Source: a virus (lineage: Duplodnaviria; Heunggongvirae; Uroviricota; Caudoviricetes). From it: a stretch of DNA of 33,721 bases. Position 1 is the first letter of the stretch, and the number at the start of each line of letters is the position of its first letter. Below the pieces are notes generated by a model that saw nothing but the letters and a program-made list of their open reading frames with translations, was not told where the DNA came from and made no database searches. Where the stretch lies: IMG/VR virus record IMGVR_UViG_2671180439_000005; one strand, written 5' to 3'. Positions 1,958-27,934 of this stretch are shown here, one piece after another. Position numbers and translations under genes: made by a program.

Positions 1958-4405
1958 TTAACCGTCATGCATCATGCTGGCACGGGCGCGCGCACGTTTA
2001 TCCCGCTCGTATTTTTCGAGCGCATCCTGTAACTGGCGGTCGAGCTGTGTCCCCGGCGCAGTACCACCCGTCAGGCTGATGTGATATTCGTTTTTACTCT
2101 GGTCCACATAAGAGCGGCCAGCCGGTGCCGTGACCGGCTGATAAGCCTGATAGCCTGCATAAGAGCTGGTCGCCGGAATATAACCACCGCTGCCATACGT
2201 GGCGGCTTGAGTTCTGGCGGCGGTCTGGTCAAGTGTGTCTGACTCTTTGTTGATAACACCGAGTTTTTCCAGTACCCAGTCAATACCGCTGCGCAGTTTG
2301 TTGAACGCATTAAGCGGCAGCATCAGCGCGTCAGCCAGTGCCTGCCCGAACATGACCCCCGTGTCACGGCAACTGTTCAGGGTGTCCTGAGTGGCTTTGA
2401 CCGGGGCAATCAGGTTTTTAAACCACTGCCACGCGGCCTGTAACTTTTCGCCCAGCCAGTCGAACACCGGCTTAAGTGGCGTGAACAGTTCCCCCACCGG
2501 CGCAAATGCCGCTTTCAGCCCTTCCACCACACCGCCAAAGAATGCGCTGACAGGCTCCCAGTATTTACGGATAAGCAACGCCCCGGCGACAATGGCGGCC
2601 ACCACGGCCACAACCGGCCAGCTAATCGCCCCGATGGCGGTCATAACAGCACTGCCAACCGTCGTGAAGACTGCCCCCATTGCGCCTGCTGCCGCGATGA
2701 TGGCATTGATGCCAGTGATAACCGGCCAGGCTACAAGACCAATGGCACCGATGATGCCAATAAGCGCCAGCGCGCCACCGACAATGAGGCCGATGGTTGA
2801 CGCCAGTGATTTGTTTTTCTGGATCCAGCCGTCGAGTTTTAACACATACTTTGTGGCCGTCTGCGTGAGCTTACGCAGTGCGCCTTCCTGCTGGTCAAAC
2901 AGGTCTGTCCCCACCGCCTCATAAGCGGACTGAAACTCCTTAAAGTCACCGCCGAGGTTGTCCTGCATGATATTTACCAGCTCGGCAGTCTTCCCGTCTG
3001 AGGCTTTAAACGCAGCGGTCAGTTTGTCCAGCTTTCCGGTTGAGGCGGCAGTCATCAGCACGGCGGCGGCTGAGCTGGCCTCCTCCCCGAAAATAGTTTT
3101 CATGTATTCAGCCTGCTGGGCAGTACCGAGCCGGTTTTTCTCAAAACTGGCCTGCATTTCTTTCAGAATGGTAAATATTGGCCGGGTGTTTCCCTTGCTG
3201 TCTGAGGTTTTCACGCCAAGCTCTTTGAGTGCATCCCATGCTTTTCCCGTCGGTGCCTGCAGGCGGCTTAACACGGCACGGCTTCCCGTCCCCGCCATTG
3301 AGCCTGTGATTTTTGCATCATGCAGCGCCCCGACCATTGCGGCGGTTTCTTCAATGCTGACACCGGCATTTTTTGCCACAGGTGCGGCATAGGTCAGCGC
3401 ATCGCTCATGCCGTCAAAATCGGCGGCGGTTTTGTTCATCGTCATGGAGAGAACATCCCCGATATGAGCGACCTTATCGTTTGAAAGCTGAAAGGCGGAT
3501 TTCATCCCCATCAGCAGGGCGGCGTTTTCTTCCATCGTGCGGCGGTTCGCCAGCGCCATATTCAGCGTGACCGGCGTTGCCGCCTGAATGGCATCAACAT
3601 CCCCACCCGCTTTCGCGATGATTATCTGTGCACCGGCCGCATCATCCGCCGAGGCGGCGGTATTGTCGCCGAGCTGGCGCGCCTGTTTGCGTAGTACGGT
3701 CATTTCGGCGGAGTCTTTTGCCACTCCGAGCACGGCCTGCAATTCTGAGTTTTTCTGCGCAAACTCATAACCGGGCATCAGCAGCTTAACTCCGGCCATC
3801 GTTCCCGCCGCCGCAATCCCCACACCGGCAGCGCCCACTGAGGCCATATTTCCGGCCAGTTCCTTGCCGGCCTGATAACGCTGTTTGACTGCGTTAAGTT
3901 TTGCCTGTTGTGCACTGACACGCGCCAGTGCATCGCGCTGACGGTTAAGCTGTGCGGTGGTTTCACTGATACGGTTTTTCAGCCCCTGCTCATCATGTGC
4001 AAGATTGCGGGTATTAATTCCCACAGCGGCCAGTTCCCGCTGCTGGCGCTTAACGGAATCCGTCAGGCGGTTATATTTCGCCTGTAAGTCCTCCGCCGCA
4101 CGCTTCGCGGATTCCAGCACTTTCGCCTGAGCACGTGTCGGACGTTCAGTGTTTTTAAACTGTGTGGCAAGGGCTTCGGCCTCCTGCCGTGCCTTTTCAA
4201 GTGCATGACCAGTCACGGCGAGCTGTGCGCTGGTCTTGCGAAATCCCTCAATACGGGATGCGTGACCGTTCAGCTCGCGCAGTGATTTTTGTGTTTCCCG
4301 GATATCCCCCGACAGCGACTTGCTCGCTGTGCGGATGGATTTAAACGGGCGGGATGCCTGGTCAACAGCCCTGAGCAATACCTGTAATTTTACATTGTTA
4401 CTCAT
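1958..4405 (-). CDS. T: Tail tape measure protein gpT (815 aa)
   Basis: Track ORF; long coiled-coil N-terminal half, Gly/Ala-rich hydrophobic centre; position between E/E' and U as in P2. Confidence 0.85.
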   Translation of the reverse strand: MSNNVKLQVLLRAVDQASRPFKSIRTASKSLSGDIRETQKSLRELNGHASRIEGFRKTSAQLAVTGHALEKARQEAEALATQFKNTERPTRAQAKVLESAKRAAEDLQAKYNRLTDSVKRQQRELAAVGINTRNLAHDEQGLKNRISETTAQLNRQRDALARVSAQQAKLNAVKQRYQAGKELAGNMASVGAAGVGIAAAGTMAGVKLLMPGYEFAQKNSELQAVLGVAKDSAEMTVLRKQARQLGDNTAASADDAAGAQIIIAKAGGDVDAIQAATPVTLNMALANRRTMEENAALLMGMKSAFQLSNDKVAHIGDVLSMTMNKTAADFDGMSDALTYAAPVAKNAGVSIEETAAMVGALHDAKITGSMAGTGSRAVLSRLQAPTGKAWDALKELGVKTSDSKGNTRPIFTILKEMQASFEKNRLGTAQQAEYMKTIFGEEASSAAAVLMTAASTGKLDKLTAAFKASDGKTAELVNIMQDNLGGDFKEFQSAYEAVGTDLFDQQEGALRKLTQTATKYVLKLDGWIQKNKSLASTIGLIVGGALALIGIIGAIGLVAWPVITGINAIIAAAGAMGAVFTTVGSAVMTAIGAISWPVVAVVAAIVAGALLIRKYWEPVSAFFGGVVEGLKAAFAPVGELFTPLKPVFDWLGEKLQAAWQWFKNLIAPVKATQDTLNSCRDTGVMFGQALADALMLPLNAFNKLRSGIDWVLEKLGVINKESDTLDQTAARTQAATYGSGGYIPATSSYAGYQAYQPVTAPAGRSYVDQSKNEYHISLTGGTAPGTQLDRQLQDALEKYERDKRARARASMMHDG

Positions 4406-4825
4406 TCGTGTTTCCGCTTCGCCGGAGCGCCTTTTCGCGCCATGTGATAAGTTCGGTCAGGCTCATGGGATACAGTTCTGATGGCGGCCAGTGAAATATC
4501 ACTGCCACATCCGCCATCAGGTCATCGACCGAGAGATTTTTCGGAAACGTCACTGCACCGAGTTCGGCGACAAAAAACCGACCACCTTACCGGCCAGCGC
4601 CACAAGGTCAGGCAGTTCCAGCGCGGCGACCTCCTGCTCGGTCAGCATCGGTGCCGTCATGCGCGGCAGCACTTTAATCAGTGCATCGACTTCGGAGTTT
4701 GCGACCGCAGCCAGACTGACACCGCGCAGCGTCCCGGCATTGGGTTTCATCAGCGTGACCTGTTCGATAACCTGCTCACCACGCTTGACCGGATTGTCCA
4801 GGGTAATCACATTTTCTTTGTTCAT
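4398..4825 (-). CDS. E+E': Tail assembly chaperone E+E' made by programmed -1 ribosomal frameshift (about 142 aa)
   Basis: Slippery T_TTT_TTG on the minus strand (plus 4571-4577) in the GFL codons of E; -1 frame continues FVAELGAVTFPKNLSVDDLMADVAVIFHWPPSELYPMSLTELITWREKALRRSGNTNE to TAA at 4398-4400, overlapping the T start at 4405; same architecture as P2 E/E+E'. Confidence 0.7.
4550..4825 (-). CDS. E: Tail assembly chaperone gpE (91 aa)
   Basis: Track ORF; matches P2 gpE; contains slippery heptamer near its 3' end. Confidence 0.8.
   Translation of the reverse strand: MNKENVITLDNPVKRGEQVIEQVTLMKPNAGTLRGVSLAAVANSEVDALIKVLPRMTAPMLTEQEVAALELPDLVALAGKVVGFLSPNSVQ
4571..4577 (-). promoter_or_regulatory. 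-1 frameshift slippery site for E+E'
   Basis: Plus-strand caaaaaa = minus-strand TTTTTTG in the X_XXY_YYZ register of the E reading frame. Confidence 0.65.
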
Positions 4826-4881
4826 GGTTTTCTCACTTCTGAATCAGGGTTAACCGGTCAGCCTGGCTGACCGGATGAAAA

Positions 4882-5400
4882 TCACAGGCCGATATTGCGG
4901 CGGTGTTGCTCCAGCCGGTCGGCGCCGTTCACCTTCTCAATCATGTTGATGGTGTCGATTTCGACCAGCTCCTTACCGTCCATCGTCAGCCGGAAATAGG
5001 TGCAGACCACGGAAATTTTCGACTCGGTGTCTTCTCCCTGTTTACCCTCGCCGGTGTCGATTTCTTTCTGACGTCCACGCATGACCACCTCGACGGCTAC
5101 CGTTTCGCCGGTATCGTCGCGCTGGTAAGAGCCTGCAAAACGAATCGGCACAGCATCCACACCGGTTGCGGCGTAAAGCTCCCAGATAACCGAATCCGGG
5201 AAGCCCCCGAGCGACCACTCCATTGACAGCGCATCGTCATCAAGGCCGAGGTCTACCGGTGCGCTTCCGTTCATCCCCGCACCGCGATAGTTTTCGAGTT
5301 TACGGGTCAGTTTTGGCAGCGTGACGGACTTTGCAACGCCCTGATAGCTGTAGCCGTTCAGAAAGACGTTCATTAACTTGAGTTTGCGCGGCATTGCCAT
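4882..5400 (-). CDS. FII: Tail tube protein gpFII (172 aa)
   Basis: Track ORF; sequence recognisable as P2 FII; same length as P2. Confidence 0.85.
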   Translation of the reverse strand: MAMPRKLKLMNVFLNGYSYQGVAKSVTLPKLTRKLENYRGAGMNGSAPVDLGLDDDALSMEWSLGGFPDSVIWELYAATGVDAVPIRFAGSYQRDDTGETVAVEVVMRGRQKEIDTGEGKQGEDTESKISVVCTYFRLTMDGKELVEIDTINMIEKVNGADRLEQHRRNIGL

Positions 5401-5412
5401 CGGTCAGGCTCC

Positions 5413-6603
5413 TTAATTGCTGTTAACCGAAGTGACCAGATTTGCCAGGTATTTATCGGTAATACGCTGGCGCAGGGTCAGGTTTTCGAGAGGAGGCACC
5501 GGTGTATAGTCGTAGTCGATATACAGTTTTCCGGCCTTGAGGGTTTCCGCATCATTGGATTCTTCGCTGAACCAGCAGGTCGCATCCACGATATAGCCGT
5601 TTGTTTTCAGCTCACGGAATTTGGCATTGATGCCGTCAACGATGTCGCGAATCAGCGTTGCGGTGATGGGCTTGTCCACCGCCCACATGTGCGCCTCAGC
5701 CATCGTGTCGGCCAGCACCTGCGCGGTGCGGGTGTAGTTTTCAAAGAGGAACAGCGGGTCATCAGAGCAGGTACGGTTACCCCAGAAGCGGAAACCGTCG
5801 CGGCGAATCAGCGTTGTGACGCCTGACTCGTTAAGCAGGTCAGCATCGGTGCCGGACTCCTGCAAATCCCAGAATACAGAGGCGCTGATGCCGGTAACAC
5901 CGTTCACCCCGACGTTGGACAGCGTTTTATGCCAGCCCTGCTCCTGGTCGATTTTAGCGCGCAGACCCAGCGCACGGGCGGTGGCATACGCGGTGGCGGT
6001 GGTACTGGTGACCGTATCCCATGCGAGGAAATCCGGCCAGATGACCATCAGCTCACGCTGGCTGAAATTCTGGCGGTAGGCTTTCACCTCGGAAATGGTC
6101 TTACATCCCCATGCGCTGATATACCCGAAAGCACGCAGCTTCTGACAGACTGATGCCAGTGCAACAGCCACCTCTTTGGTATCCAGTCCCGGCACGCCGA
6201 GAATACGCGGTTTTACACCGGTTACCGACTCCGCCGCCAGCAGGGCTTTCAGTCCGGTGTACTGACCGTTTTCGTCGGTGGTGCCGATGATATTGGAAAC
6301 GGTCTGCGCGAGTTTCGTTTCTTCGTCTTCGCCGGTGCCGTCTTCCACACGCACGACAACGGTGACCGGTTTTGACTGGTCGGCGATGGCCTGTAACGAT
6401 GCCGCCAGCGTGCCTTTTTTACCGGCCTTCGCAATTGCGCTCTGCACATTGGTAATCAGCACCGGTTTATTGAGGGGGAAGGTTTCCGCATCTGCATCGC
6501 TGGCCGTGCAGACCATGCCGACAATGGCCGTGGATACGGTGGAAATGACGCGGGTGCCGTCGTTAATCTCCAGCACCTGCACGCCATGATGATAGTCACT
6601 CAT
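5413..6603 (-). CDS. FI: Contractile tail sheath protein gpFI (396 aa)
   Basis: Track ORF; sequence recognisable as P2 FI; same length as P2. Confidence 0.85.
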   Translation of the reverse strand: MSDYHHGVQVLEINDGTRVISTVSTAIVGMVCTASDADAETFPLNKPVLITNVQSAIAKAGKKGTLAASLQAIADQSKPVTVVVRVEDGTGEDEETKLAQTVSNIIGTTDENGQYTGLKALLAAESVTGVKPRILGVPGLDTKEVAVALASVCQKLRAFGYISAWGCKTISEVKAYRQNFSQRELMVIWPDFLAWDTVTSTTATAYATARALGLRAKIDQEQGWHKTLSNVGVNGVTGISASVFWDLQESGTDADLLNESGVTTLIRRDGFRFWGNRTCSDDPLFLFENYTRTAQVLADTMAEAHMWAVDKPITATLIRDIVDGINAKFRELKTNGYIVDATCWFSEESNDAETLKAGKLYIDYDYTPVPPLENLTLRQRITDKYLANLVTSVNSN

Positions 6604-6863
6604 CCGTTTAACTCCGTGGTTAATGGGTGCAACTATTTTCTGTTGGGCAGTGCATGAGACGCTATTTGACCTGGCTGGTCAGTGGATGAAACAACAGATA
6701 AAGAAAAGGCGGGCAATCAGCTTGCCTGCCTTGATTTGTACTCTCTCTGTTTCCAACTGACAAATTACGTAACCAAAATTCTGTCAAATCTGACAGCCTG
6801 TTTTGAGCGAAGAGCGGACCTGAGATTGTGGTATGCTAATTTATGGGGAGCAGGTCAATTGTA

Positions 6864-7556
6864 TTAGTTATCTTTTTGCTTTTCTTTATCCCATTTCTTT
6901 GCAGTGGTCTGATACCACTCTTCACGTGCTCGTTGTTCCTCGGCTCTGTCACTTGAATTATAGTTGTCTGTTTTAATTTTTTTGCTTCCCTGGGAAATCG
7001 GCCTCCAGTCTTCTCTAATCTTTTTCATCTGCTCAGCTATCTGTGTCATTGGACTCCTTGCACCTAAGTAGCTAACCCCCTCGAAAGAAGCCATATCATA
7101 AGAATACTCATTCCGCTCTCTTTCAGTTGAGCCCGGCTGTTTAGACCAGCTAATACTAACAGAATAAACTTGATCTTTAATCTGGTCATACTTACAAAGA
7201 CTGCTGTTAAGGGAATGGCCGTTTTTCAATACGCTAACCTTGCTAAATGGTATACCTTCATTTTTTCTATGTTCTGCATTAACCAGTGGGGGATTAAATC
7301 CGACTTCAATATCATAGGCTGGGGCATTTCCGGTATTAGCAATATTGATATCAAAATAAAAAGCAGCCCAAGAATTTGGTTCAAGAGTCACAACGACATG
7401 AGGTTGAACTGATGCGTCAACCATCCTTTTTGTCTCGTCTGCTAATAGCCTTGTTACTCTCCACAAGAAAAATGTAGCAACTGCTGTTAGCAATGCTGCC
7501 AAAGCTGAGATAAGTGTACTTACTGTGTTTATATGCTCTGCGATAAATTCGATCAT
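6864..7556 (-). CDS. Hypothetical protein, 230 aa, single N-terminal TM anchor, Lys/Glu-rich C-terminus (cargo)
   Basis: Track ORF with ATG start and AGGA RBS 6 nt upstream; hydrophobic segment INTVSTLISALAALLTAVATFFLW; AT-rich; no P2 counterpart known to me. Confidence 0.55.
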   Translation of the reverse strand: MIEFIAEHINTVSTLISALAALLTAVATFFLWRVTRLLADETKRMVDASVQPHVVVTLEPNSWAAFYFDINIANTGNAPAYDIEVGFNPPLVNAEHRKNEGIPFSKVSVLKNGHSLNSSLCKYDQIKDQVYSVSISWSKQPGSTERERNEYSYDMASFEGVSYLGARSPMTQIAEQMKKIREDWRPISQGSKKIKTDNYNSSDRAEEQRAREEWYQTTAKKWDKEKQKDN

Positions 7557-8047
7557 AAGTTGTCCTTGGGGGCGTACTAATTGTTTTCAATACTAAAATA
7601 ACGCCGGGCTTGAAAAATTGCACACTTATGGTTCGATTTACCTCAACAGTTAAGGCTTCAACTTCCCCCATGCACCTCACCCAGCCCAAGACTGTATGAG
7701 GTCTGACAAAGAACTTCCTGACACTTGAAAACGAGGCAACGGCTAGGGTTTCTCGTAGGGCAAGGATTGAATACGAAGCCTGTATATTGCTCCGCGAACG
7801 CTGCTGAGGGCAGTTTAAATGTTGGGCGTTTATGTAGCCTTTCACTCACCAGCATGAGTTCAATGTCTGTGAGTTACCGACAACAATATAAAGGGGGTGA
7901 CATCATCATATATCCAAGCTAGAGTCAAATCCTATAACTGGTTTTATGATCAGTGTCAATTGTTTGATTATTGAACGTTTACGAAGCAGCACGGGAGCCA
8001 TATAACTAATGGGCAGGTATAAGCCTGTATCACGAGGAATCAGTAAA

Positions 8048-8227
8048 ATGGCTGATGATAAGACCAAAATCGGTACCCCTGACAATGATTTAATAAGTAT
8101 CAAACAGGATTACGAGAGACGTGATTGGGCTGAAAAGTTTGGAGTTAGCGAGGCCAAACTTGTTCAAGCCGTACAGGCTGTAGGTCATTCGGCTAAGAAA
8201 GTACAGGCATGGCTTAAAGACCATTAA
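8048..8227 (+). CDS. DUF3606-like small protein (59 aa from MADDK; track ORF begins at 8009) (cargo)
   Basis: Pattern MADDKTKIG..DYERRDWAEKFGVSEAKLVQAVQAVGHSAKKVQAWL resembles DUF3606 members as I recall them; GAGGA 9 nt upstream of ATG 8048; hairpin plus T-run directly downstream. Confidence 0.5.
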   Translation: MADDKTKIGTPDNDLISIKQDYERRDWAEKFGVSEAKLVQAVQAVGHSAKKVQAWLKDH

Positions 8228-8233
8228 TATATG

Positions 8234-8260
8234 AGCGCCTTTCTAGGCGCTTTTTTCTTT
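8234..8260 (+). terminator. Rho-independent terminator or attenuator after the DUF3606 gene
   Basis: agcgcc-tttcta-ggcgct stem-loop followed by ttttttcttt. Confidence 0.55.
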
Positions 8261-8279
8261 GTCCTTTGGGAGATGATTT

Positions 8280-8558
8280 ATGGCTAATAATTTATTTATT
8301 ACTTACGACCTCATTAAAACGAAAGATTATGCGGCTGTGTATGATGCAATTAAATCTTTAGGAAATTGGGCTTTAACAACTGAATCGAACTGGTATGTTA
8401 ACTGTAGTTACTCTGCCGAGGATGCAGCCAAAATTGTGAGGGCGGTCATGGATAGTGATGATAAGCTTATTGTTGTAGACGCAACCAATAACTCAGCTTA
8501 TTGGTACAATCTCTCAGATGAAGTTAGTAACCAAATTCTGACTGAGTGGAACAAGTAA
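8280..8558 (+). CDS. Hypothetical protein, 92 aa (cargo)
   Basis: Track ORF with ATG and GGGAG RBS 7 nt upstream; followed by a strong GC-stem terminator; no family recognised. Confidence 0.5.
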   Translation: MANNLFITYDLIKTKDYAAVYDAIKSLGNWALTTESNWYVNCSYSAEDAAKIVRAVMDSDDKLIVVDATNNSAYWYNLSDEVSNQILTEWNK

Positions 8559-8587
8559 TTAAAGGGGGTGGGTACCCCCCTTTAATT
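8557..8587. terminator. Bidirectional rho-independent terminator between convergent cargo genes
   Basis: aattaaaggggg-tgggtac-ccccctttaatt inverted repeat with U-rich flank on both strands. Confidence 0.6.
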
Positions 8588-9032
8588 CAGAAACTATCAT
8601 GATTGAAACATTAAATATACTGGGTTAATTCTTTCATCCTTGCTCCCTTGCTATATGTCCTGAAAGCGTCCTTTTTAGCCTTCTGCTCAGTATGTCCGGT
8701 AATGGCACGCAGCGGACATTGCTGGCTGAGTTGAGGGTCCGCTGTGAGCGAGGAGCGGAAGTTCAAAATTTTTCATAACGACTGATGAGAACAACACTAA
8801 TTTTCGAACTTACTGGTACAAAAAATTTCCATAATCTTATAAAAAGTGGGGGAGTCAGTATGGTTCAATATTTGAAATACTACTTGTTTATGTTGAGAAA
8901 ATTTTAAGCTTGACCTGGTTACCAGATTACAGCCGATCAACACCTAGACATCGAAACTTAGAGGTACCTCTGCTTTCAGGCATACTTAGAGGTCTATGTC
9001 TAAACCACCCGCTATGCAGGTGGTTGATTTAC

Positions 9033-10568
9033 CTAATTCGGCCTTGCTTGAATAGCAGACTCTATAGCTGCTCGGAATTCCGGGGCATCAGCTCTTAATC
9101 GATAATCATCAAGGGTATTGAATATTTCTAGAAGTTCTCTACGATAATGCGGCGGTGCTGAATTACCTTCGCCTCTAGTGGTGAAAATTAATAATGAGTC
9201 AGCGACGTCTTTTAATTTTTTATTCCTTTTCAATCTAATATAACAAGATACAACTATATCAAGAATATGTTTTCTAGATTTCAAGGTGAGTTTTTTATTA
9301 GGCATAACCAACTGCAGCATAGCACCAAGTAATTTGGTAGCCTCTTTTGAAATATAATGAAGATCGAAATTATCTATTTCTTTATTTTCTTGAGGAATCT
9401 CCTTTTCATCTATCCATTCGCATTGTTCTGCCCAATCTGTAGCGACGCTAAATAAATGACAGAGAAGGAAGTGAAAAGGTGTTTCCCATTCACCACTATA
9501 TTCATCCGATTGCCTATTCATATTCTTTATAATTTTCCTTGCAAAATATGAATAGTAATGCAACCATAAATGATACTGAAGACCCTGGTGAATACCTTCA
9601 TGAACCATAATTTCAAACAGCGTGACACCTGAGTAAATAGGACATTTATATTTTGAAGCATCGTAATAGGAACCTAAAGACTTATTAAGTGCAGCAATAA
9701 TTTTTTCATCTTCATCTAACCTCCAGTAGAGATAGTCACCGATATCACGGTATATTGCTAAATCAGCTGCAAACTTAGCATTGGAAAAGAAAAAATGTAA
9801 TATACGGTTGTTTTTTGGAATCAATAAACGATGTCCTCGACTAACGTTAAGATTATTTTTAAGCTCAACATATAGACGACTGTTAGGTGAACCAAGTAAT
9901 GCACTGATAAAATTAGAAGTAAAGTCAGAACGAACTATTGGCTCGATCTTGATTAACTCAAGGCAGAGGGATGGGTGCGCAAGTGCAAAGTGATTGGTAA
10001 GTTCAGGTGATGAGACAATATTTAACAATGCTTCATGTGCATGTTCAGCAGCTGTCTCGCGATTAGAGATGCGGAGATTGTTAGCTATCTTATCACAAAG
10101 TCGATTCTTCACAGGTCTATCAATTATTGATATTAATTTTTCTAGTTGAGGTGCCAACAATTGTGCCAGATCGTCGTATCGTTTAGTAAGGTGCAAATTT
10201 TCCACTAACTCTAGAAATATCCCTGTTCTTCCAATTGAGAGTTTAGGGTTTTTTAAGCGAAATAAAATGTAAATAGCAACTGCGAGTGATATCAGGTATA
10301 CGGCACTTGAACTATCTAATCCCCATTTCCAGGGGCCAAAGCTAAAATATAAGTCTAGTGATTTTAAAGCCGGTGCAAACACCAAATAATTGCTTAGTAA
10401 GAATGCAAACCCAACAATTACCCAATCCCACCACGCTAGGCAGAACCTTAAACGTAGTCGAGCGTTTGGCGTAATAAGGGCCCATACAGCAGCAATAACG
10501 CCCAATATGGTAAGTAGACTTGATGTATCAATTTTGGTTGGCGGTGTCATAATTTCTCTTGTAATCAT
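9033..10568 (-). CDS. Hypothetical membrane protein, 511 aa, three N-terminal TM helices plus large helical soluble domain (cargo)
   Basis: Track ORF with ATG start; hydrophobic segments at about aa 17-32, 42-64 and 86-103; about 35% GC; alternative start at Met7; no family recognised. Confidence 0.6.
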   Translation of the reverse strand: MITREIMTPPTKIDTSSLLTILGVIAAVWALITPNARLRLRFCLAWWDWVIVGFAFLLSNYLVFAPALKSLDLYFSFGPWKWGLDSSSAVYLISLAVAIYILFRLKNPKLSIGRTGIFLELVENLHLTKRYDDLAQLLAPQLEKLISIIDRPVKNRLCDKIANNLRISNRETAAEHAHEALLNIVSSPELTNHFALAHPSLCLELIKIEPIVRSDFTSNFISALLGSPNSRLYVELKNNLNVSRGHRLLIPKNNRILHFFFSNAKFAADLAIYRDIGDYLYWRLDEDEKIIAALNKSLGSYYDASKYKCPIYSGVTLFEIMVHEGIHQGLQYHLWLHYYSYFARKIIKNMNRQSDEYSGEWETPFHFLLCHLFSVATDWAEQCEWIDEKEIPQENKEIDNFDLHYISKEATKLLGAMLQLVMPNKKLTLKSRKHILDIVVSCYIRLKRNKKLKDVADSLLIFTTRGEGNSAPPHYRRELLEIFNTLDDYRLRADAPEFRAAIESAIQARPN

Positions 10569-10925
10569 TGTTTGATGTACATCGGAATGGTTTCAAATGA
10601 TAAGGCTCTGTGTATGATAAATCAGAACGTTATGCACGTTTAAGAATACCCTCAAAATGGCACATTTTAATCTAAAAATGGCATTAAATGGACACTACTT
10701 GTCCACACAAGTTTTTTTTCAGTCGGCTTTTCCCGACTAACGTTTGGGGTGTCCTATTGAAACTACGCTCCTTATAAAAGCAATACTGTAGCTGTATGTT
10801 TATCAAAGGGGTTGTGCTAACCAAATTACTGAAGCCTAAGGTCCGCTCTTGGCACAGAGCGGACTGTCAGATTAGGCTTTACTCTGTGCCATAGATATGT
10901 AATCTCACACCAGAGCTTATACAAC

Positions 10926-11453
10926 TTATTGCGGCATTTCCGGCCATTCAGGATTTGCAGGATCCACACGACTGACCAGAACGCTGTAGCGTTCCCAGAT
11001 CTCCAGCCGTGTGCGCTCCTCATCTGTTGCCATGTTCAGTCTGACCGCGCGCTCCAGCGGCAAAATCACGGATTCAGCATCTGCTAGAAGTCTGGCTTTC
11101 CGATTTTCTGCCTGCTGCTGCAATTCCTCCGCCGTATAAATTCGTTTAATCACTGTGCCGTCCTTAAACATCCAGTTCCCTGAAATGTCCGCCCGTCGGT
11201 TAGCGGTAATATCCGGCACTTCAACAACACTTAATCCATCTGGTCTGATAGCTGTCACATCCTTTTCCACATAGCGGATAATATTATCTTTGTCGTACGC
11301 TATTTTTATCGTGTCATCAGCAAAATACTTTTGTTCTTCGTACCAGTTCTTACCATCTTCTGAAAAAAACCAGACAACATCAAAACCCTTTGTCAATTGA
11401 TATTGTTCAACCGTTTTTGGATTACCCGCCGTAATATTTTTTAAATGCTGCAT
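10926..11453 (-). CDS. G: Tail fibre assembly protein gpG (175 aa)
   Basis: Track ORF; recognisable as P2 gpG; directly downstream of H. Confidence 0.8.
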
Positions 11454-11456
11454 AAA

Positions 11457-13586
11457 TTATACCTGTGCCACGTTATACCATGTCCCGTTAATGTATTTCT
11501 GAACCGGTCTGTAATATACGCCACCAATGTTATCGGCAGAGTTTGAGCCGGTATCCTGAACAATAATGCCGGAATATATACACCCGGACGGTGCCTGATG
11601 TGTCCATGTCATGCCATTGTTCGCAGGTTTGTATGTGGCAGCACCACCAAGCCGGATATCCCGGACATAGCGGGAATCAAAGTTACCGTAATCTGTGGGA
11701 TTAACACGCCCCGTAATATTTATGGTTTTATTACTTTGAATGCTACCGGAGACAAAGCGCATAACATGGACGTTATTAGCATAAACATCCAGATTACCGT
11801 CGCCATTTTGTTTAAAGCCCGTGTCATTATCACCCAAAACAATCGAGTTACCGCCAAGAGCACTGGATGTACCGATGCCCAGTGCACCATTCAATTGACC
11901 TCCAGATAATGATAACGCCCCAACATCAGCAGCAGTCGGTTTAATGTGCGAACTGTAAATTACATATACAGTTCCATCTGTCAGGCCTGTTGGTTTATTC
12001 GCTGTATAAGTTGGTGATGTATGAATCGTTACGCTGGCGTTACTGGTATAATCCCACTGAATATTAACACCTGTGGCGTAATTACCTATTTCAACATAAA
12101 CATCATAGGTATCACCGGATGTATTCACCCATGCAAAATTAGTAAATCCAACCGATGTCCGTCGCCATAACGCACCAGTAAGACCTTTTGGATTTCTATT
12201 CCCCGCACGAAGAACAAGTTCAGATATACCAGCCTGCATAGGGGAGTTAACATTATATCCGGCACCACCAATCAGACTTATGTAAACCACGGAACTGGCC
12301 TGTGGCATGGTTACAGTTGCCAGCCTGAACCATCCTGTACCACCACTAAAAGACATGGTTGTTGAATTTGTTGCTCCAATATTGCGCAGGAATAATCTTT
12401 TATCAGGAATATCCGCGCCATTTTGATCTTTCTGAAGACGTTTTTCAGCATTGTCATAGGCAGACTTCACCGCTTTTGGTGTTGCGGCCAGCGTTTCCGA
12501 ATCACTGTTGGTGGCGCTACTGAGCTGAACAAGCCCTTTTCGCGCTGTGGTGGCATCCTGTGCAGTGTATTTCCCGTTAGCAAGGTCATACGCGACCTTT
12601 ACCGCCTTTGGCGTTGCCGCAAGCGTTTCAGAATCACTGTTGGTGGCGCTACTGAGCTGGACAAGGCCTTTTCTCGCTGTGGTGGCGTCCTGTGCAGTGT
12701 ATTTCCCGTTAGCAAGGTCATACGCGACCTTTACCGCCTTTGGCGTTGCGGCCAGCGTTTCAGAATCGCTGTTGGTGGCGCTACTGAGCTGAACAAGGCC
12801 TTTTCGCGCTGTGGTGGCGTCCTGTGCGGTATATTTCCCGTTAGCAAGGTCATATGCTGCTTTTACCGCTTTTGGTGTTGCAGCGAGCGTTTCAGACGTG
12901 CTGTTGGTGGCGCTACTGAGCTGGACAAGGCCTTTTCGTGCTGTGGTGGCGTCCTGTGCGGTATATTTCCCGTTAGCAAGGTCATATGCGGCCTTTACCG
13001 CCTTTGGCGTTGCAGCCAGTGTTTCAGACGTGCTGTTGGTCGCACTGCTTAACTGAGTAAAACCTTTTGCGGTCAGCGAGGCGTCCGGGTGACGTCGTGA
13101 CTGTTCATGTTCTGCAATTTTGTCATCAACGTAATCCTGCGTCGCCATCACCGTTGTGGTGTCAATGGTCAGCGCCACTGAGGTCACACTGCTGACGATG
13201 ATGACCATACGGCAGGTCTGCGAACGCCCTGAGCCTTCGGCAAGAGCTGGCTTATAACTTTCGGCCATGTTCGCCACAGCAATTAACGTTCCCGCATCAT
13301 CGTACAGGCCAAGCTCACGCATCCAGAAACCGCCCACCTCCGGCGGAATAACCAGCTCTGCGATAATATAATTACTGTTTCGTTTGTCCTGGCTGATTTT
13401 GTTCAGCGCATGTCGCCAGACTTCGTGGATAAGCCCGGTCTGTCCGGCATCCGGGACAGGCAATTTACCACCGCCATCCCCGACGGCCATCGTGGTAATG
13501 TTGACCTTCCGCCCTCCCGGTGCGGTTGCCGCTGCCAGCTTTGCTGCACCGGCAGTGGTGATAACGGTTCTGAATTTTGTGCTCAT
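11457..13586 (-). CDS. H: Tail fibre protein gpH (709 aa) with internal tandem fibre repeats
   Basis: Track ORF; N-terminus matches P2 H; five copies of a 44-aa repeat KGLVQLSSATNS(T/D)SETLAATPKAVKxAYDLANGKYTAQDATTAR. Confidence 0.85.
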   Translation of the reverse strand: MSTKFRTVITTAGAAKLAAATAPGGRKVNITTMAVGDGGGKLPVPDAGQTGLIHEVWRHALNKISQDKRNSNYIIAELVIPPEVGGFWMRELGLYDDAGTLIAVANMAESYKPALAEGSGRSQTCRMVIIVSSVTSVALTIDTTTVMATQDYVDDKIAEHEQSRRHPDASLTAKGFTQLSSATNSTSETLAATPKAVKAAYDLANGKYTAQDATTARKGLVQLSSATNSTSETLAATPKAVKAAYDLANGKYTAQDATTARKGLVQLSSATNSDSETLAATPKAVKVAYDLANGKYTAQDATTARKGLVQLSSATNSDSETLAATPKAVKVAYDLANGKYTAQDATTARKGLVQLSSATNSDSETLAATPKAVKSAYDNAEKRLQKDQNGADIPDKRLFLRNIGATNSTTMSFSGGTGWFRLATVTMPQASSVVYISLIGGAGYNVNSPMQAGISELVLRAGNRNPKGLTGALWRRTSVGFTNFAWVNTSGDTYDVYVEIGNYATGVNIQWDYTSNASVTIHTSPTYTANKPTGLTDGTVYVIYSSHIKPTAADVGALSLSGGQLNGALGIGTSSALGGNSIVLGDNDTGFKQNGDGNLDVYANNVHVMRFVSGSIQSNKTINITGRVNPTDYGNFDSRYVRDIRLGGAATYKPANNGMTWTHQAPSGCIYSGIIVQDTGSNSADNIGGVYYRPVQKYINGTWYNVAQV
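12456..13067 (-). repeat. In-frame tandem repeat, 132-bp unit, about 4.6 copies, inside tail fibre gene H
   Basis: Near-identical 132-nt units visible in the DNA; plus-strand track ORFs 12547..12792 and 12811..13056 are mirror artefacts of the repeat. Confidence 0.8.
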
Positions 13587-16102: not shown

Positions 16103-16145
16103 GATTACTTAACTGGCAAAAAAACATCCTCACTAATTGGAGCCA

Positions 16146-17237
16146 ATGGATACACGCATGTCAGACATTCTAATTACTTATGATGAACGGAAAGATAAAT
16201 TTGAGTCCTATGCCCTTACTCTTAAATCGTTATTAACCACGTTAATTCGCAATGAAAAAATTTCAATTCACTCACTTGAATCAAGAGTTAAAACAAAAAA
16301 AAGCCTTGAAGGTAAGATTAATAAAAAGGGAAAATACAAGTCTATAGATGATATTACTGATATCGTTGGTATCAGGATCATCACACATTATGCTGATGAT
16401 GTTGATAAGATAGCTGCTATAGTTGAAAAGGAGTTCACCATTGACCAAGAGAACTCTATTGATAAAAGAACCTCAATTGCGCCTGATAAATTTGGTTACC
16501 TATCACTTCATTATATAGTAACTTTAAACTCAACCAGAACAAACTTAAAAGAATATGAAGTATATAAAAACATCAAAGCCGAATTACAAATACGATCAAT
16601 CCTTCAGCATGCCTGGGCGGAGATTGAACACGACATTGGTTATAAGTCGGCCACAGGACTGCCTAATGAAATAAGAAGATACTTTTCACGCTTAGCTGGT
16701 CTTTTAGAAATGGCCGATGATGAATTTATTAAAATCAGAAAAAAGATTTCTGAACGGCAGAAAGAGGTTGCAAAAGAACTAGAGCAAGGAACTAGTGATT
16801 CAGTTTTAGATATTTTCACTTTGGATGAATTCTTAAACACAAGTCGAGTTATGAGTGAACTTTCAGAAGAGATAAAAGAAAAAACAGGAATCACAGTACA
16901 TGGCCGATACAAGGATAAAGATTTGGGATACCTACTAAATGGTTTAAACCTAGCCAACATAACTACAATAGAACAACTCAATCAAAAACTCTCACAAATG
17001 AAAAAGCAGATAGTAGATAGAATATTCTGCTTCGGAGAACCATTTATTAATTATTACAGAGAAACCACCATGCCAAAAGAAGCTCTTTTGAGTTATTTAT
17101 GTCAAATTATCGTTGCGTTTCAAAACTCACCTTCGTTAGAATCTGAATTTAATAACAAAGCAGGTTTAAATCTGAAAAACAGAGATATCTCCGATTTTTT
17201 CTCGAATATAAGAGAAAACATAAGCACACAACCTTAG
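16146..17237 (+). CDS. Fused toxic small alarmone synthetase-like protein (RelA/SpoT nucleotidyltransferase N-domain plus C-terminal regulatory domain), CapRel-like (cargo)
   Basis: Synthetase motifs SRVKTKKSLEGK, DITDIVGIRIITHY, YLSLHYIV, ELQIRSILQHAWAEIEHDIGYK; about 363 aa from ATG 16146 (track ORF starts at TTG 16137); AT-rich, opposite strand to flanking late genes. Confidence 0.7.
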   Translation: MDTRMSDILITYDERKDKFESYALTLKSLLTTLIRNEKISIHSLESRVKTKKSLEGKINKKGKYKSIDDITDIVGIRIITHYADDVDKIAAIVEKEFTIDQENSIDKRTSIAPDKFGYLSLHYIVTLNSTRTNLKEYEVYKNIKAELQIRSILQHAWAEIEHDIGYKSATGLPNEIRRYFSRLAGLLEMADDEFIKIRKKISERQKEVAKELEQGTSDSVLDIFTLDEFLNTSRVMSELSEEIKEKTGITVHGRYKDKDLGYLLNGLNLANITTIEQLNQKLSQMKKQIVDRIFCFGEPFINYYRETTMPKEALLSYLCQIIVAFQNSPSLESEFNNKAGLNLKNRDISDFFSNIRENISTQP

Positions 17238-26901: not shown

Positions 26902-27831
26902 TCAAACCAGGCTTTTGCCTTGCTTCATTTTTTTAGATGAGTCTAAAAATTTGAAATTATCATTAGATGAAAATATTCTTTCTGCGGTATGCCGAATGAC
27001 TGAAGTATTGAAGACCGCAGCCTGCTCCTCATTACAACTGAATACACCCTCATGACCATCAAACTCGCCCGCCAAAAGAAGGTTTTTTGATACTGGGAAC
27101 AAAACTAAAGTGTCTTTTACACCAAACCCGGGGGAATAAGGGCCTCGTGCTAATTCAGGATTAGTCCACATTAAGCAAACTGGGTTATCTGAAGTTATAA
27201 ATGACCCTTGCCCATCAGATATGGTCATAAGTGACCAGTTGCGTTGATGCAACAACTTGGTGATAACAGGTACACATTTCATTTCCATATCTATCATGAA
27301 CTCTCTGATTACATTGATTTCGAAATTATCCCCATCCACAAAATTTTTAATTTTTTCGTAAGCGAGATCATATGGCAAAGACTCACCCATTTCTTTCTCA
27401 TAAGCTAATTTGCAATCGTCCCAACGCTCAGCCGAACTAACTGAGGATTTCATGATAAACTTTGCTATTTGTTTCAATGGAGATGATAAATGTTCTCGCT
27501 GAGCAGGCGTACGTATTGCCAATAAGGAAATAAACTCCAGAATAACATCTTTGGTTTCGCCTGAAAACTCGCCCCCCTCCTCAAGTTTTCTTAAATGAGT
27601 AGCGACACTGCCTTCAAACTCTGCAAGAGAACTCTCGAGATAGTTTGGGTCAACTCCATCCAATTCTAATCGGTTGAAATCTCTAACCCCCCCGACATTG
27701 CGAGTATTACTCTCAAAGGTTTTGCGCTCCTTTAAATCTATTACAGTTAATTTTGATTTTTTCCCCCCATTACTTGTAAACCCTTTCAAATAACATTGGG
27801 ATAAAAAATGATGATGCCTTGCAACACTCAT
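26902..27831 (-). CDS. DUF4238-family protein (309 aa from ATG; cargo at the tin/old slot)
   Basis: N-terminal HHHFLSQCYLKGF signature typical of DUF4238 as I recall it; ATG at Met15 of the track ORF with GGAG RBS (the track start is GTG); AT-rich. Confidence 0.6.
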   Translation of the reverse strand: MSVARHHHFLSQCYLKGFTSNGGKKSKLTVIDLKERKTFESNTRNVGGVRDFNRLELDGVDPNYLESSLAEFEGSVATHLRKLEEGGEFSGETKDVILEFISLLAIRTPAQREHLSSPLKQIAKFIMKSSVSSAERWDDCKLAYEKEMGESLPYDLAYEKIKNFVDGDNFEINVIREFMIDMEMKCVPVITKLLHQRNWSLMTISDGQGSFITSDNPVCLMWTNPELARGPYSPGFGVKDTLVLFPVSKNLLLAGEFDGHEGVFSCNEEQAAVFNTSVIRHTAERIFSSNDNFKFLDSSKKMKQGKSLV

Positions 27832-27934
27832 ACTCAGCTCCGTTATGGCTATAATCGCATAAATAATAAGCACTTATATTGCAATCATCTAGTTAAATAC
27901 ACAATATTTATGACTCCGAAATTTCATTAAATCA

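Follow-up and report, generated by a model that had tools for sequence, protein, structure and literature searches.

The question raised by this locus is what a large membrane protein, encoded in a low-GC segment among phage structural genes, does for the element that carries it. The window, by which we mean the whole stretch of 33,721 nucleotides analysed here, is a complete P2-like prophage. Its genes follow the order D-U-T-E-FII-FI, the Z region, G-H-I-J-W-V, lysis, capsid, terminase and portal, and A and int. The gene under study lies between G and FI, and thus in Z/fun, the classical variable region of P2-like phages (PMC3091744; bioRxiv 2024.10.15.618418; P2 reference annotation). An earlier note, made from the letters and open reading frames of the window, had proposed that the product is a three-helix membrane protein of the abortive-infection or superinfection-exclusion type. 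Here we ask whether the gene is real, how it moves, what its product is predicted to look like and which function fits best.

Results

The open reading frame is a genuine gene of an uncharacterized family

9033–10568, minus strand: open reading frame of 511 aa; probable true coding sequence 9033–10550, 505 aa, starting at Met7

The 511-aa frame described in the earlier note is present in the list of open reading frames, and translation probably begins at Met7 (ATG at 10550), which gives a protein of 505 aa. Based on the family alignment, homologues all start at the equivalent ‘MTxP’ position, and a length of 505 aa was called by the NCBI pipeline PGAP in four other genomes. Additionally, all 505 of the 505 positions of the phrog_13820 profile HMM align with residues 7–511 (E = 0, 1092.7 bits). 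This profile, of unknown function, is the sole database label for the protein’s family.

The overall GC content of the gene is 0.37 (GC3 0.29). As the earlier note had observed, GC is low throughout, at 0.35–0.40 along the gene compared with approximately 0.55–0.60 in the flanking phage structural genes. Pairwise dN/dS values against copies in other genomes range from 0.19 to 0.39, indicating purifying selection. The family contains at least 155 full-length homologue clusters and at least 833 cluster representatives (50% identity, E ≤ 0.001). Because of this depth of homologues and these dN/dS values, the open reading frame is a genuine gene and not a chance frame. Homologues are 505–540 aa long, are all labelled ‘hypothetical’ and occur in Gamma-, Beta- and Alphaproteobacteria, Bacteroidota and other groups.

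Pfam returned no family for the query, and for 58 distant members it returned one stray TetR_C match only; NCBIfam had no match for the query. With the 5027 defence-protein HMMs of PADLOC-DB v2.0.0, no family was obtained for the query at E ≤ 1, and the 58 distant members produced just two stray matches (E of about 0.007–0.009). Searches of PDB sequences with the single sequence (phmmer) and with the profile (hmmsearch) gave nothing below E 0.07. The protein had been called uncharacterized at the outset, a description that holds across Pfam, PADLOC, NCBIfam and PDB. Homology to a transporter or to a phage structural protein, named at that stage as evidence that would count against the proposal, was looked for and not found. 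No mention of the family appeared in the literature and supplements that were searched for accessions and peptide motifs, including the DefensePredictor paper, Vassallo 2022 and the 2026 NAR P2/P4 paper.

Position in the prophage and expression

10926–11453, minus strand: tail-fibre assembly gene G (Pfam Caudo_TAP, 1e-33; same annotation in R18C, P2 and E. coli prophages), the left border of the Z/fun hotspot
10551–10839, minus strand: upstream region that accompanies the gene, also in non-phage contexts; presumed to hold the gene’s own promoter

The gene lies directly downstream of G, from which it is separated by a spacer of 357 bp (10569–10925), in agreement with the arrangement first described. 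It belongs to a low-GC block spanning 6600–10900, which also holds three other Z-region genes. The two other cargo sites of the same prophage hold defence-type genes as well. The old/tin site encodes a DUF4238 protein (PADLOC 1.8e-219), and the orf30 site encodes a RelA/SpoT-domain protein (Pfam 1.9e-21; PADLOC candidate PDC-S33, 1e-16).

A promoter scan found a weak sigma-70-like match at 10596–10567 (TTGAAA-18-AACAAT, 9/12) that overlaps the first ATG and would fit the Met7 start. Matches in the promoter and terminator scans were no more numerous than in shuffled sequence, and the terminator scan found no canonical terminator between the gene and G. Judged from sequence, the gene is likely to have its own promoter, since about 300 bp of upstream DNA goes with it into non-phage islands. 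Read-through from the late operon may take place during lytic growth.

The gene occupies a mobile cassette with palindromes at its boundaries

8736–10871, unstranded: mobile cassette of 2.1 kb, comprising the gene with about 300 bp upstream and about 297 bp downstream; 92–99.5% identical in other contexts
10840–10864, unstranded: perfect palindrome of 25 bp, GGTCCGCTCT-N6-AGAGCGGAC, with 0 mismatches, at the upstream cassette boundary; it lies inside a longer hairpin, GCCTAAG...TTAGGC
8736–8760, unstranded: degenerate copy of the palindrome (3 mismatches) that coincides exactly with the downstream end of the cassette

Phages R18C and P2-EC53 otherwise share the Z region at 97.6–97.7% identity, but without the gene. 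Their alignment with the window covers 6001/6574–8717, is interrupted by a gap and restarts at 10841. The part of the Z region common to both phages holds three genes: one for a 230-aa TM protein, annotated as ‘putative lysogenic conversion protein’, one for a DUF3606 protein and one for a protein of 92 aa. The block 8736–10871 itself recurs, with the identity given above, in an E. coli island, a lambdoid prophage, Leclercia and Pectobacterium. E. coli islands with the cassette have inovirus-Gp2-like genes, IS elements and dndB close by, and in a Rac-like prophage the cassette adjoins a restriction endonuclease and hokD. Another P2-like prophage carries it with different companion cargo. Among 5426 complete E. 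coli genomes, 81 have the gene and 1048 have a P2-type G, and the junction between G and the cassette is found in only 5 of the 81 gene-bearing genomes.

For the GGTCCGCTCT-N6-AGAGCGGAC pattern search, 0.01 chance matches were expected. The hairpin that holds the copy at 10840–10864 has a single-stranded DNA fold of −19.6 kcal/mol (z = −4.06 relative to shuffled sequence), and the homology breakpoints coincide with this palindrome. The cassette edge at 8736 is repeated in four independent contexts, and an imperfect related palindrome marks the other end of the Z region (6787–6824). An Rfam scan of 6500–11000 gave no match near gathering scores. Because both ends of the block match copies of the palindrome, the gene apparently travels with its upstream sequence by recombination at palindromic hairpins. 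The gene is, in this prophage, a stand-alone accessory (‘moron’) cassette of the Z/fun hotspot. Recent work describes the mechanism of cargo exchange at P2 hotspots as yet to be elucidated (PMC13586616), and the hairpin-bounded structure of the cassette bears on this question.

Family members are overwhelmingly cargo of mobile elements

Members of the family were found in prophages, phage-plasmids, ICEs and islands, and 17 IMG/VR viral contigs carry one. They are present on 115 non-mobilizable Klebsiella plasmids of about 110 kb, where they occur as two divergent alleles (71–75% and about 50% identity). We read these plasmids as SSU5-like phage-plasmids (e.g., pKPHS1 and the Klebsiella phage records of about 110 kb). 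An unannotated member of 517 aa adjoins, in convergent orientation, the integrase of Stx1a and Stx2c phages, and another member is carried by a P. aeruginosa integrase island. On a Delftia element the member abuts Lamassu, and the same adjacency is seen in Xanthomonas and Stutzerimonas; these Lamassu-adjacent loci may represent one related element.

The 149 immediate neighbours at about 30 loci include LmuB (four times), GajA (three times, best 1e-176), OLD/AriA-like ATPases (four times), integrases (four times), MADS mad2/mad3, DNA methylases, ResIII and a DpnII restriction endonuclease; these are raw counts, taken without a genome-wide background and from loci some of which are related, and the association with defence islands to which they point is suggestive. 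An all-versus-all comparison of the neighbours at 32 loci revealed no conserved partner gene, and a conserved operon partner was rejected on this ground.

A predicted membrane anchor with the C-terminal domain inside

10251–10523, minus strand: N-terminal membrane anchor, residues ~16–106, with TM helices 16–33, 46–68 and 86–106 (hydropathy and AlphaFold2)

Three hydrophobic helices near the N-terminus had been claimed, and both methods place them within the first 106 residues. The Kyte–Doolittle peaks fall at residues ~22–27, 49–60 and 92–98, and the AlphaFold2 helices span 16–31, 46–63/70 and 86–106. The TM anchor is a feature of the whole family, as 130 of 136 full-length representatives have two to four hydrophobic segments in their first 150 aa. 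Of the anchor’s loops, the one in the cytoplasm is basic (RLRLRF), and the one in the periplasm (residues ~72–83) is conserved as G-x-W-x-W-G, with G72, G78, W80, W82 and G83. One face of TM1 is lined by the small residues G23, A26, A27 and A30, and A27 is nearly invariant family-wide.

Across 52 close and 58 distant homologues, the net charge is +2.6 to +2.9 for loop 1 and +3.1 to +3.5 for the stretch that follows TM3. The predicted topology is N-out and C-in, with a cytoplasmic domain of about 400 aa, because the positive-inside rule puts loop 1 and the post-TM3 segment inside, and the N-terminal tail and the GxWxWG loop outside. These family-wide counts agree with the membrane anchor and large cytoplasmic domain of the initial proposal. 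The three TM helices could also be a simple anchor.

A predicted cytoplasmic solenoid with a conserved polar site

9036–10250, minus strand: predicted cytoplasmic all-alpha solenoid, residues ~107–511

The earlier note had predicted about 400 residues of helical sequence, and an AlphaFold2 model built from a 52-sequence alignment is indeed all-alpha, at high confidence (pLDDT 85.8, pTM 0.79), with approximately 20 helices after the TM helices. The modelled solenoid resembles only HEAT/ARM repeats, that is, stacked antiparallel helical repeats forming a superhelix, and no enzyme fold was found in it. As modelled, such a fold would suit binding or sensing better than the role of an effector. On this reading, the effector, if there is one, is more likely to be the three-TM part.

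Residues conserved family-wide include the polar S230, E235, N239, N254, H333, E360 and D487 and the aromatic W335, Y338 and W379; E235 and M321 are invariant in the 58 more distant members. The polar set lies in or beside three conserved inter-helix loops (239–254, 328–335 and 350–363), and these persistent residues probably form one putative binding or metal site. The constellation of conserved E, H, N and D residues could instead be a catalytic centre. The combination of three TM helices with an alpha-solenoid is absent from current defence catalogues and has not been previously described.

Discussion

Anti-phage cargo is the best fit to these observations, because the gene sits in a hotspot cassette, needs no partner, is spread over temperate phages, ICEs and phage-plasmids, lies beside known defence systems and shows allelic diversity at one phage-plasmid locus. 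Within this class, an infection-triggered membrane effector is favoured because the joining of a TM module to a large cytoplasmic domain of binding type parallels the TM effectors of CBASS and Pycsar and the RexAB system. We therefore put the protein forward, tentatively and with slightly less than an even chance of being right, as a candidate single-protein anti-phage sensor-effector that would abort infection through the membrane. In such a mechanism, the HEAT/ARM-like solenoid would bind a phage-made protein or another infection cue in the cytoplasm, with the contact made at its conserved polar loops around E235, N239, N254, H333, E360 and D487. The three-helix anchor would then oligomerize or rearrange and compromise the inner membrane, and the infection would be stopped. 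We infer all three elements, namely phage protection, the solenoid as sensor and the TM domain as the module of killing or arrest. The suggestion that a protein of this shape is of a defence or exclusion type stands in part: the context is typical of such prophage cargo (the P2 Z/fun hotspot, the cassette and the defence neighbours elsewhere), and the function itself keeps the status of a candidate.

An accessory role outside defence is unlikely but carries real weight. The protein would in that case be a membrane-tethered scaffold that alters host physiology (lysogenic conversion), or would provide immunity to bacterial toxins, or would act in competition with mobile elements other than phages. 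The Z/fun hotspot has been described as being of ‘mixed purpose’, with non-defence cargo as well (bioRxiv 2024.10.15.618418). Many neighbours of family members are plain mobile-element genes (integrases, IS elements and conjugation genes), and an RHS toxin is found near one locus. No defence model of PADLOC matches the protein, even when the 58 distant members are included, so that the defence call is one of guilt by association. However, the family appears repeatedly in classic moron positions (next to int, in a nin-like region and in P2 Z) and as the direct neighbour of Lamassu, Gabija and restriction genes, and the 32 loci show no conserved toxin partner, all of which argue against a role of this kind.

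Superinfection exclusion, which is indistinguishable from abortive infection by sequence, would have an inner-membrane protein block phage DNA entry or an early membrane step, with survival of the cell; the parts acting where the DNA is injected would be the GxWxWG loop and the TM bundle. The membrane location, the prophage cargo site and the conservation of the periplasmic loop (G72, G78, W80, W82 and G83) are consistent with this possibility, as is the annotation of fun(Z), the P2 gene at the same locus, as a block to T5 growth. Nevertheless, only about 30 residues face the periplasm, whereas the well-conserved portion of approximately 400 residues is cytoplasmic. Known Sie proteins are small, and a large cytoplasmic domain is atypical for them. 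The family is also found in ICEs and in chromosomal islands, next to defence systems that work inside the cell, and we regard exclusion as quite improbable.

The close relatives of the protein have a motif that bears on a third explanation:

9570–9602, minus strand: H323-E-G-I-H327-Q-G-L-Q-Y-H333 motif (HExxH-x5-H), conserved in the close subfamily only

According to this explanation, the protein would be a membrane-anchored zinc metalloprotease that, on infection, uses HEGIH-x5-H to cut a protein of the host or of the phage, as Lit does. In an alignment of 52 homologues, down to 41% identity, the motif is almost invariant (H323 in 50/52, E324 in 51/52, and H327 and H333 in 52/52), and the invariant E360 could be a further ligand. 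The earlier note, which recognized no catalytic motif, is consequently not strictly right, as an HExxH-like motif is conserved in the close subfamily; the wider family does not keep it. Among the 58 distant members, H323 is retained in 7 (most have S or T), E324 in 38, H327 in 24 and H333 in 55. An HExxH metalloprotease was rejected as a property of the family, given the loss of H323 and H327. A Lit-like zincin is also unlikely as the family function because the searches found no peptidase fold and no Pfam peptidase match, and for the protein itself we consider this activity very improbable.

A multi-gene system with the three other genes of the Z region (encoding ORF1, a TM protein of 230 aa, the DUF3606 protein and the protein of 92 aa), which share the low-GC block with it, is so improbable as to be effectively refuted by the comparative data, since R18C and P2-EC53 have the three genes without this one, the gene occurs without the three in every other context, and no neighbour is kept across the 32 loci.

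The candidate sensor-effector may be set in a wider frame. It is conceivable, though we hold it to be doubtful, that the gene is the founding member of a nameless but widely distributed family of single-protein immune modules, with at least 833 clusters (50% identity) from Proteobacteria to Bacteroidota, in which a cytoplasmic HEAT/ARM-like solenoid would directly recognize a phage component and gate a conserved three-helix membrane module. On this view, the gene would pass as a hairpin-bounded cassette among P2-like, lambdoid and SSU5-like phages, ICEs and islands, a form of exchange that recalls integron cassettes. New defence candidates are common; this family is large, clinically widespread, composed of single genes and easily tested. 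Its members are common among hosts of clinical relevance, such as E. coli, Klebsiella (on phage-plasmids), P. aeruginosa and Serratia, as well as in the Stx phages of E. coli O157. If it does not serve in defence, the family still amounts to a large and conserved set of membrane proteins of mobile elements that has escaped annotation altogether.

Comparison with known systems

The closest positional counterpart is Fun(Z) of P2, which occupies the same G–FI hotspot, is a non-essential lysogenic-conversion cargo protein of comparable length (528 aa) and, according to its annotation, blocks the growth of T5. Fun(Z) is encoded antiparallel to the late genes, whereas the gene described here is co-directional with G. 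Homology to Fun(Z) (NP_046777) was rejected, with a BLASTP E-value of 0.43 and an hhalign probability of 0.14%.

Lit, from e14, is a prophage-encoded, membrane-associated protease with an HExxH motif. The present protein is likewise encoded by a prophage and membrane associated, and its close subfamily shares the HExxH motif. It differs from Lit in that the motif is not family-wide and is accompanied by no recognizable peptidase fold or Pfam peptidase match.

The alpha-solenoid sensors (TPR, HEAT and ARM) of Avs and other STAND proteins share no more than their fold class with the modelled solenoid (4–12% identity). In contrast to those proteins, this one is without an NTPase or nuclease module and is anchored in the membrane.

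In the 2TM and 4TM-SAVED effectors of CBASS (Cap14-type), in Cap15, in PycTM of Pycsar and in RexA/RexB, an N-terminal TM module for membrane disruption is combined with a cytoplasmic ligand sensor, and the outcome is abortive infection. By analogy, the present protein would follow the same design logic, with its TM module coupled to a cytoplasmic module. It differs from the CBASS and Pycsar effectors in having no SAVED, cNMP-binding or other recognized ligand domain; neither a cyclase gene nor a partner gene goes with it, and its cytoplasmic part is instead an alpha-solenoid of 400 aa. If it is a defence gene, it would therefore add to the defence catalogues a compact single-gene system with a new domain pairing, that of three TM helices and an alpha-solenoid, and would offer an easy model for the coupling of a helical-repeat sensor to a membrane effector.

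Homologues in genomes, plasmids and phages

In several E. coli genomes (H34-H36 and H38), copies of the gene that are 99.5% identical carry a 1-bp deletion, which splits them into two annotated ORFs. A likewise split copy, 99% identical, lies at 2535-4069 of database record L019, a contig of 6.5 kb from a MAG labelled 'Bacillota', where its presence is probably due to binning contamination.

Two divergent alleles of the family, one 71-75% and the other ~50% identical to the query, were found in ~110-kb Klebsiella plasmids that are otherwise alike and are interpreted here as SSU5-like phage-plasmids. The family gene of pKPHS1 follows a glutaredoxin gene; a gene for the toxin YafO lies nearby, as does one for a group II intron RT. 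The pattern suggests allelic replacement at one locus.

A distant member of 517 aa, with 21% identity to the query, is located at 3995-5548 of record L049, the Stx2c phage LC727877, and also in 23 further Stx1a/Stx2c phage records. It is unannotated, adjoins the integrase gene at the prophage end in convergent orientation, and has N in place of H333 of the query.

Other cargo of the prophage

Both of the prophage's other cargo sites are occupied:
26902-27873, -, DUF4238 protein, 323 aa, in the P2 old/tin hotspot (Pfam 5e-39; PADLOC DUF4238-Pers 1.8e-219)
16137-17237, +, RelA/SpoT nucleotidyltransferase-domain protein, 366 aa, at orf30 (Pfam 1.9e-21; PADLOC candidate PDC-S33, 1e-16)

The validated systems of Rousset et al. 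2022 reportedly include the DUF4238-Pers type. The RelA/SpoT-domain gene has a low GC content (0.34) and runs in the direction opposite to the tail genes. It is possibly a defence gene of the toxSAS/CapRel-like kind.

Among the tail genes, the translation of tail fibre protein H (11457-13586, -) contains a ~44-aa unit repeated five times in tandem in near-identical copies, KGLVQLSSATNS[T/D]SETLAATPKAVK.AYDLANGKYTAQDATTAR.

The Z-region cargo at 6864-8558 is common to phages R18C and P2-EC53 and is older cargo, comprising:
within 6864-8558, phrog_11802 protein, 230 aa, with a TM helix at the N-terminus (labelled 'putative lysogenic conversion protein' in AJ512682)
8009-8227, +, DUF3606 protein, 72 aa
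8280-8558, +, phrog_1090 protein, 92 aa, with weak Cas2-like matches (E 0.02-0.15)

Palindromes at cargo boundaries

A GC-rich palindrome, GGTCCGCTCT-N6-AGAGCGGAC, recurs at the borders of both the cassette carrying the gene and the entire Z region:
6787-6824, palindrome copy
8736-8760, palindrome copy
10840-10864, palindrome copy

The homology breakpoints of other genomes fall inside copies of this palindrome, which may be the recombination site for the exchange of cargo (compare Nilsson et al. 2004). The perfect copy is enclosed by GCCTAAG...TTAGGC arms, which bear a loose likeness to the R''/R' boxes of integron attC sites.
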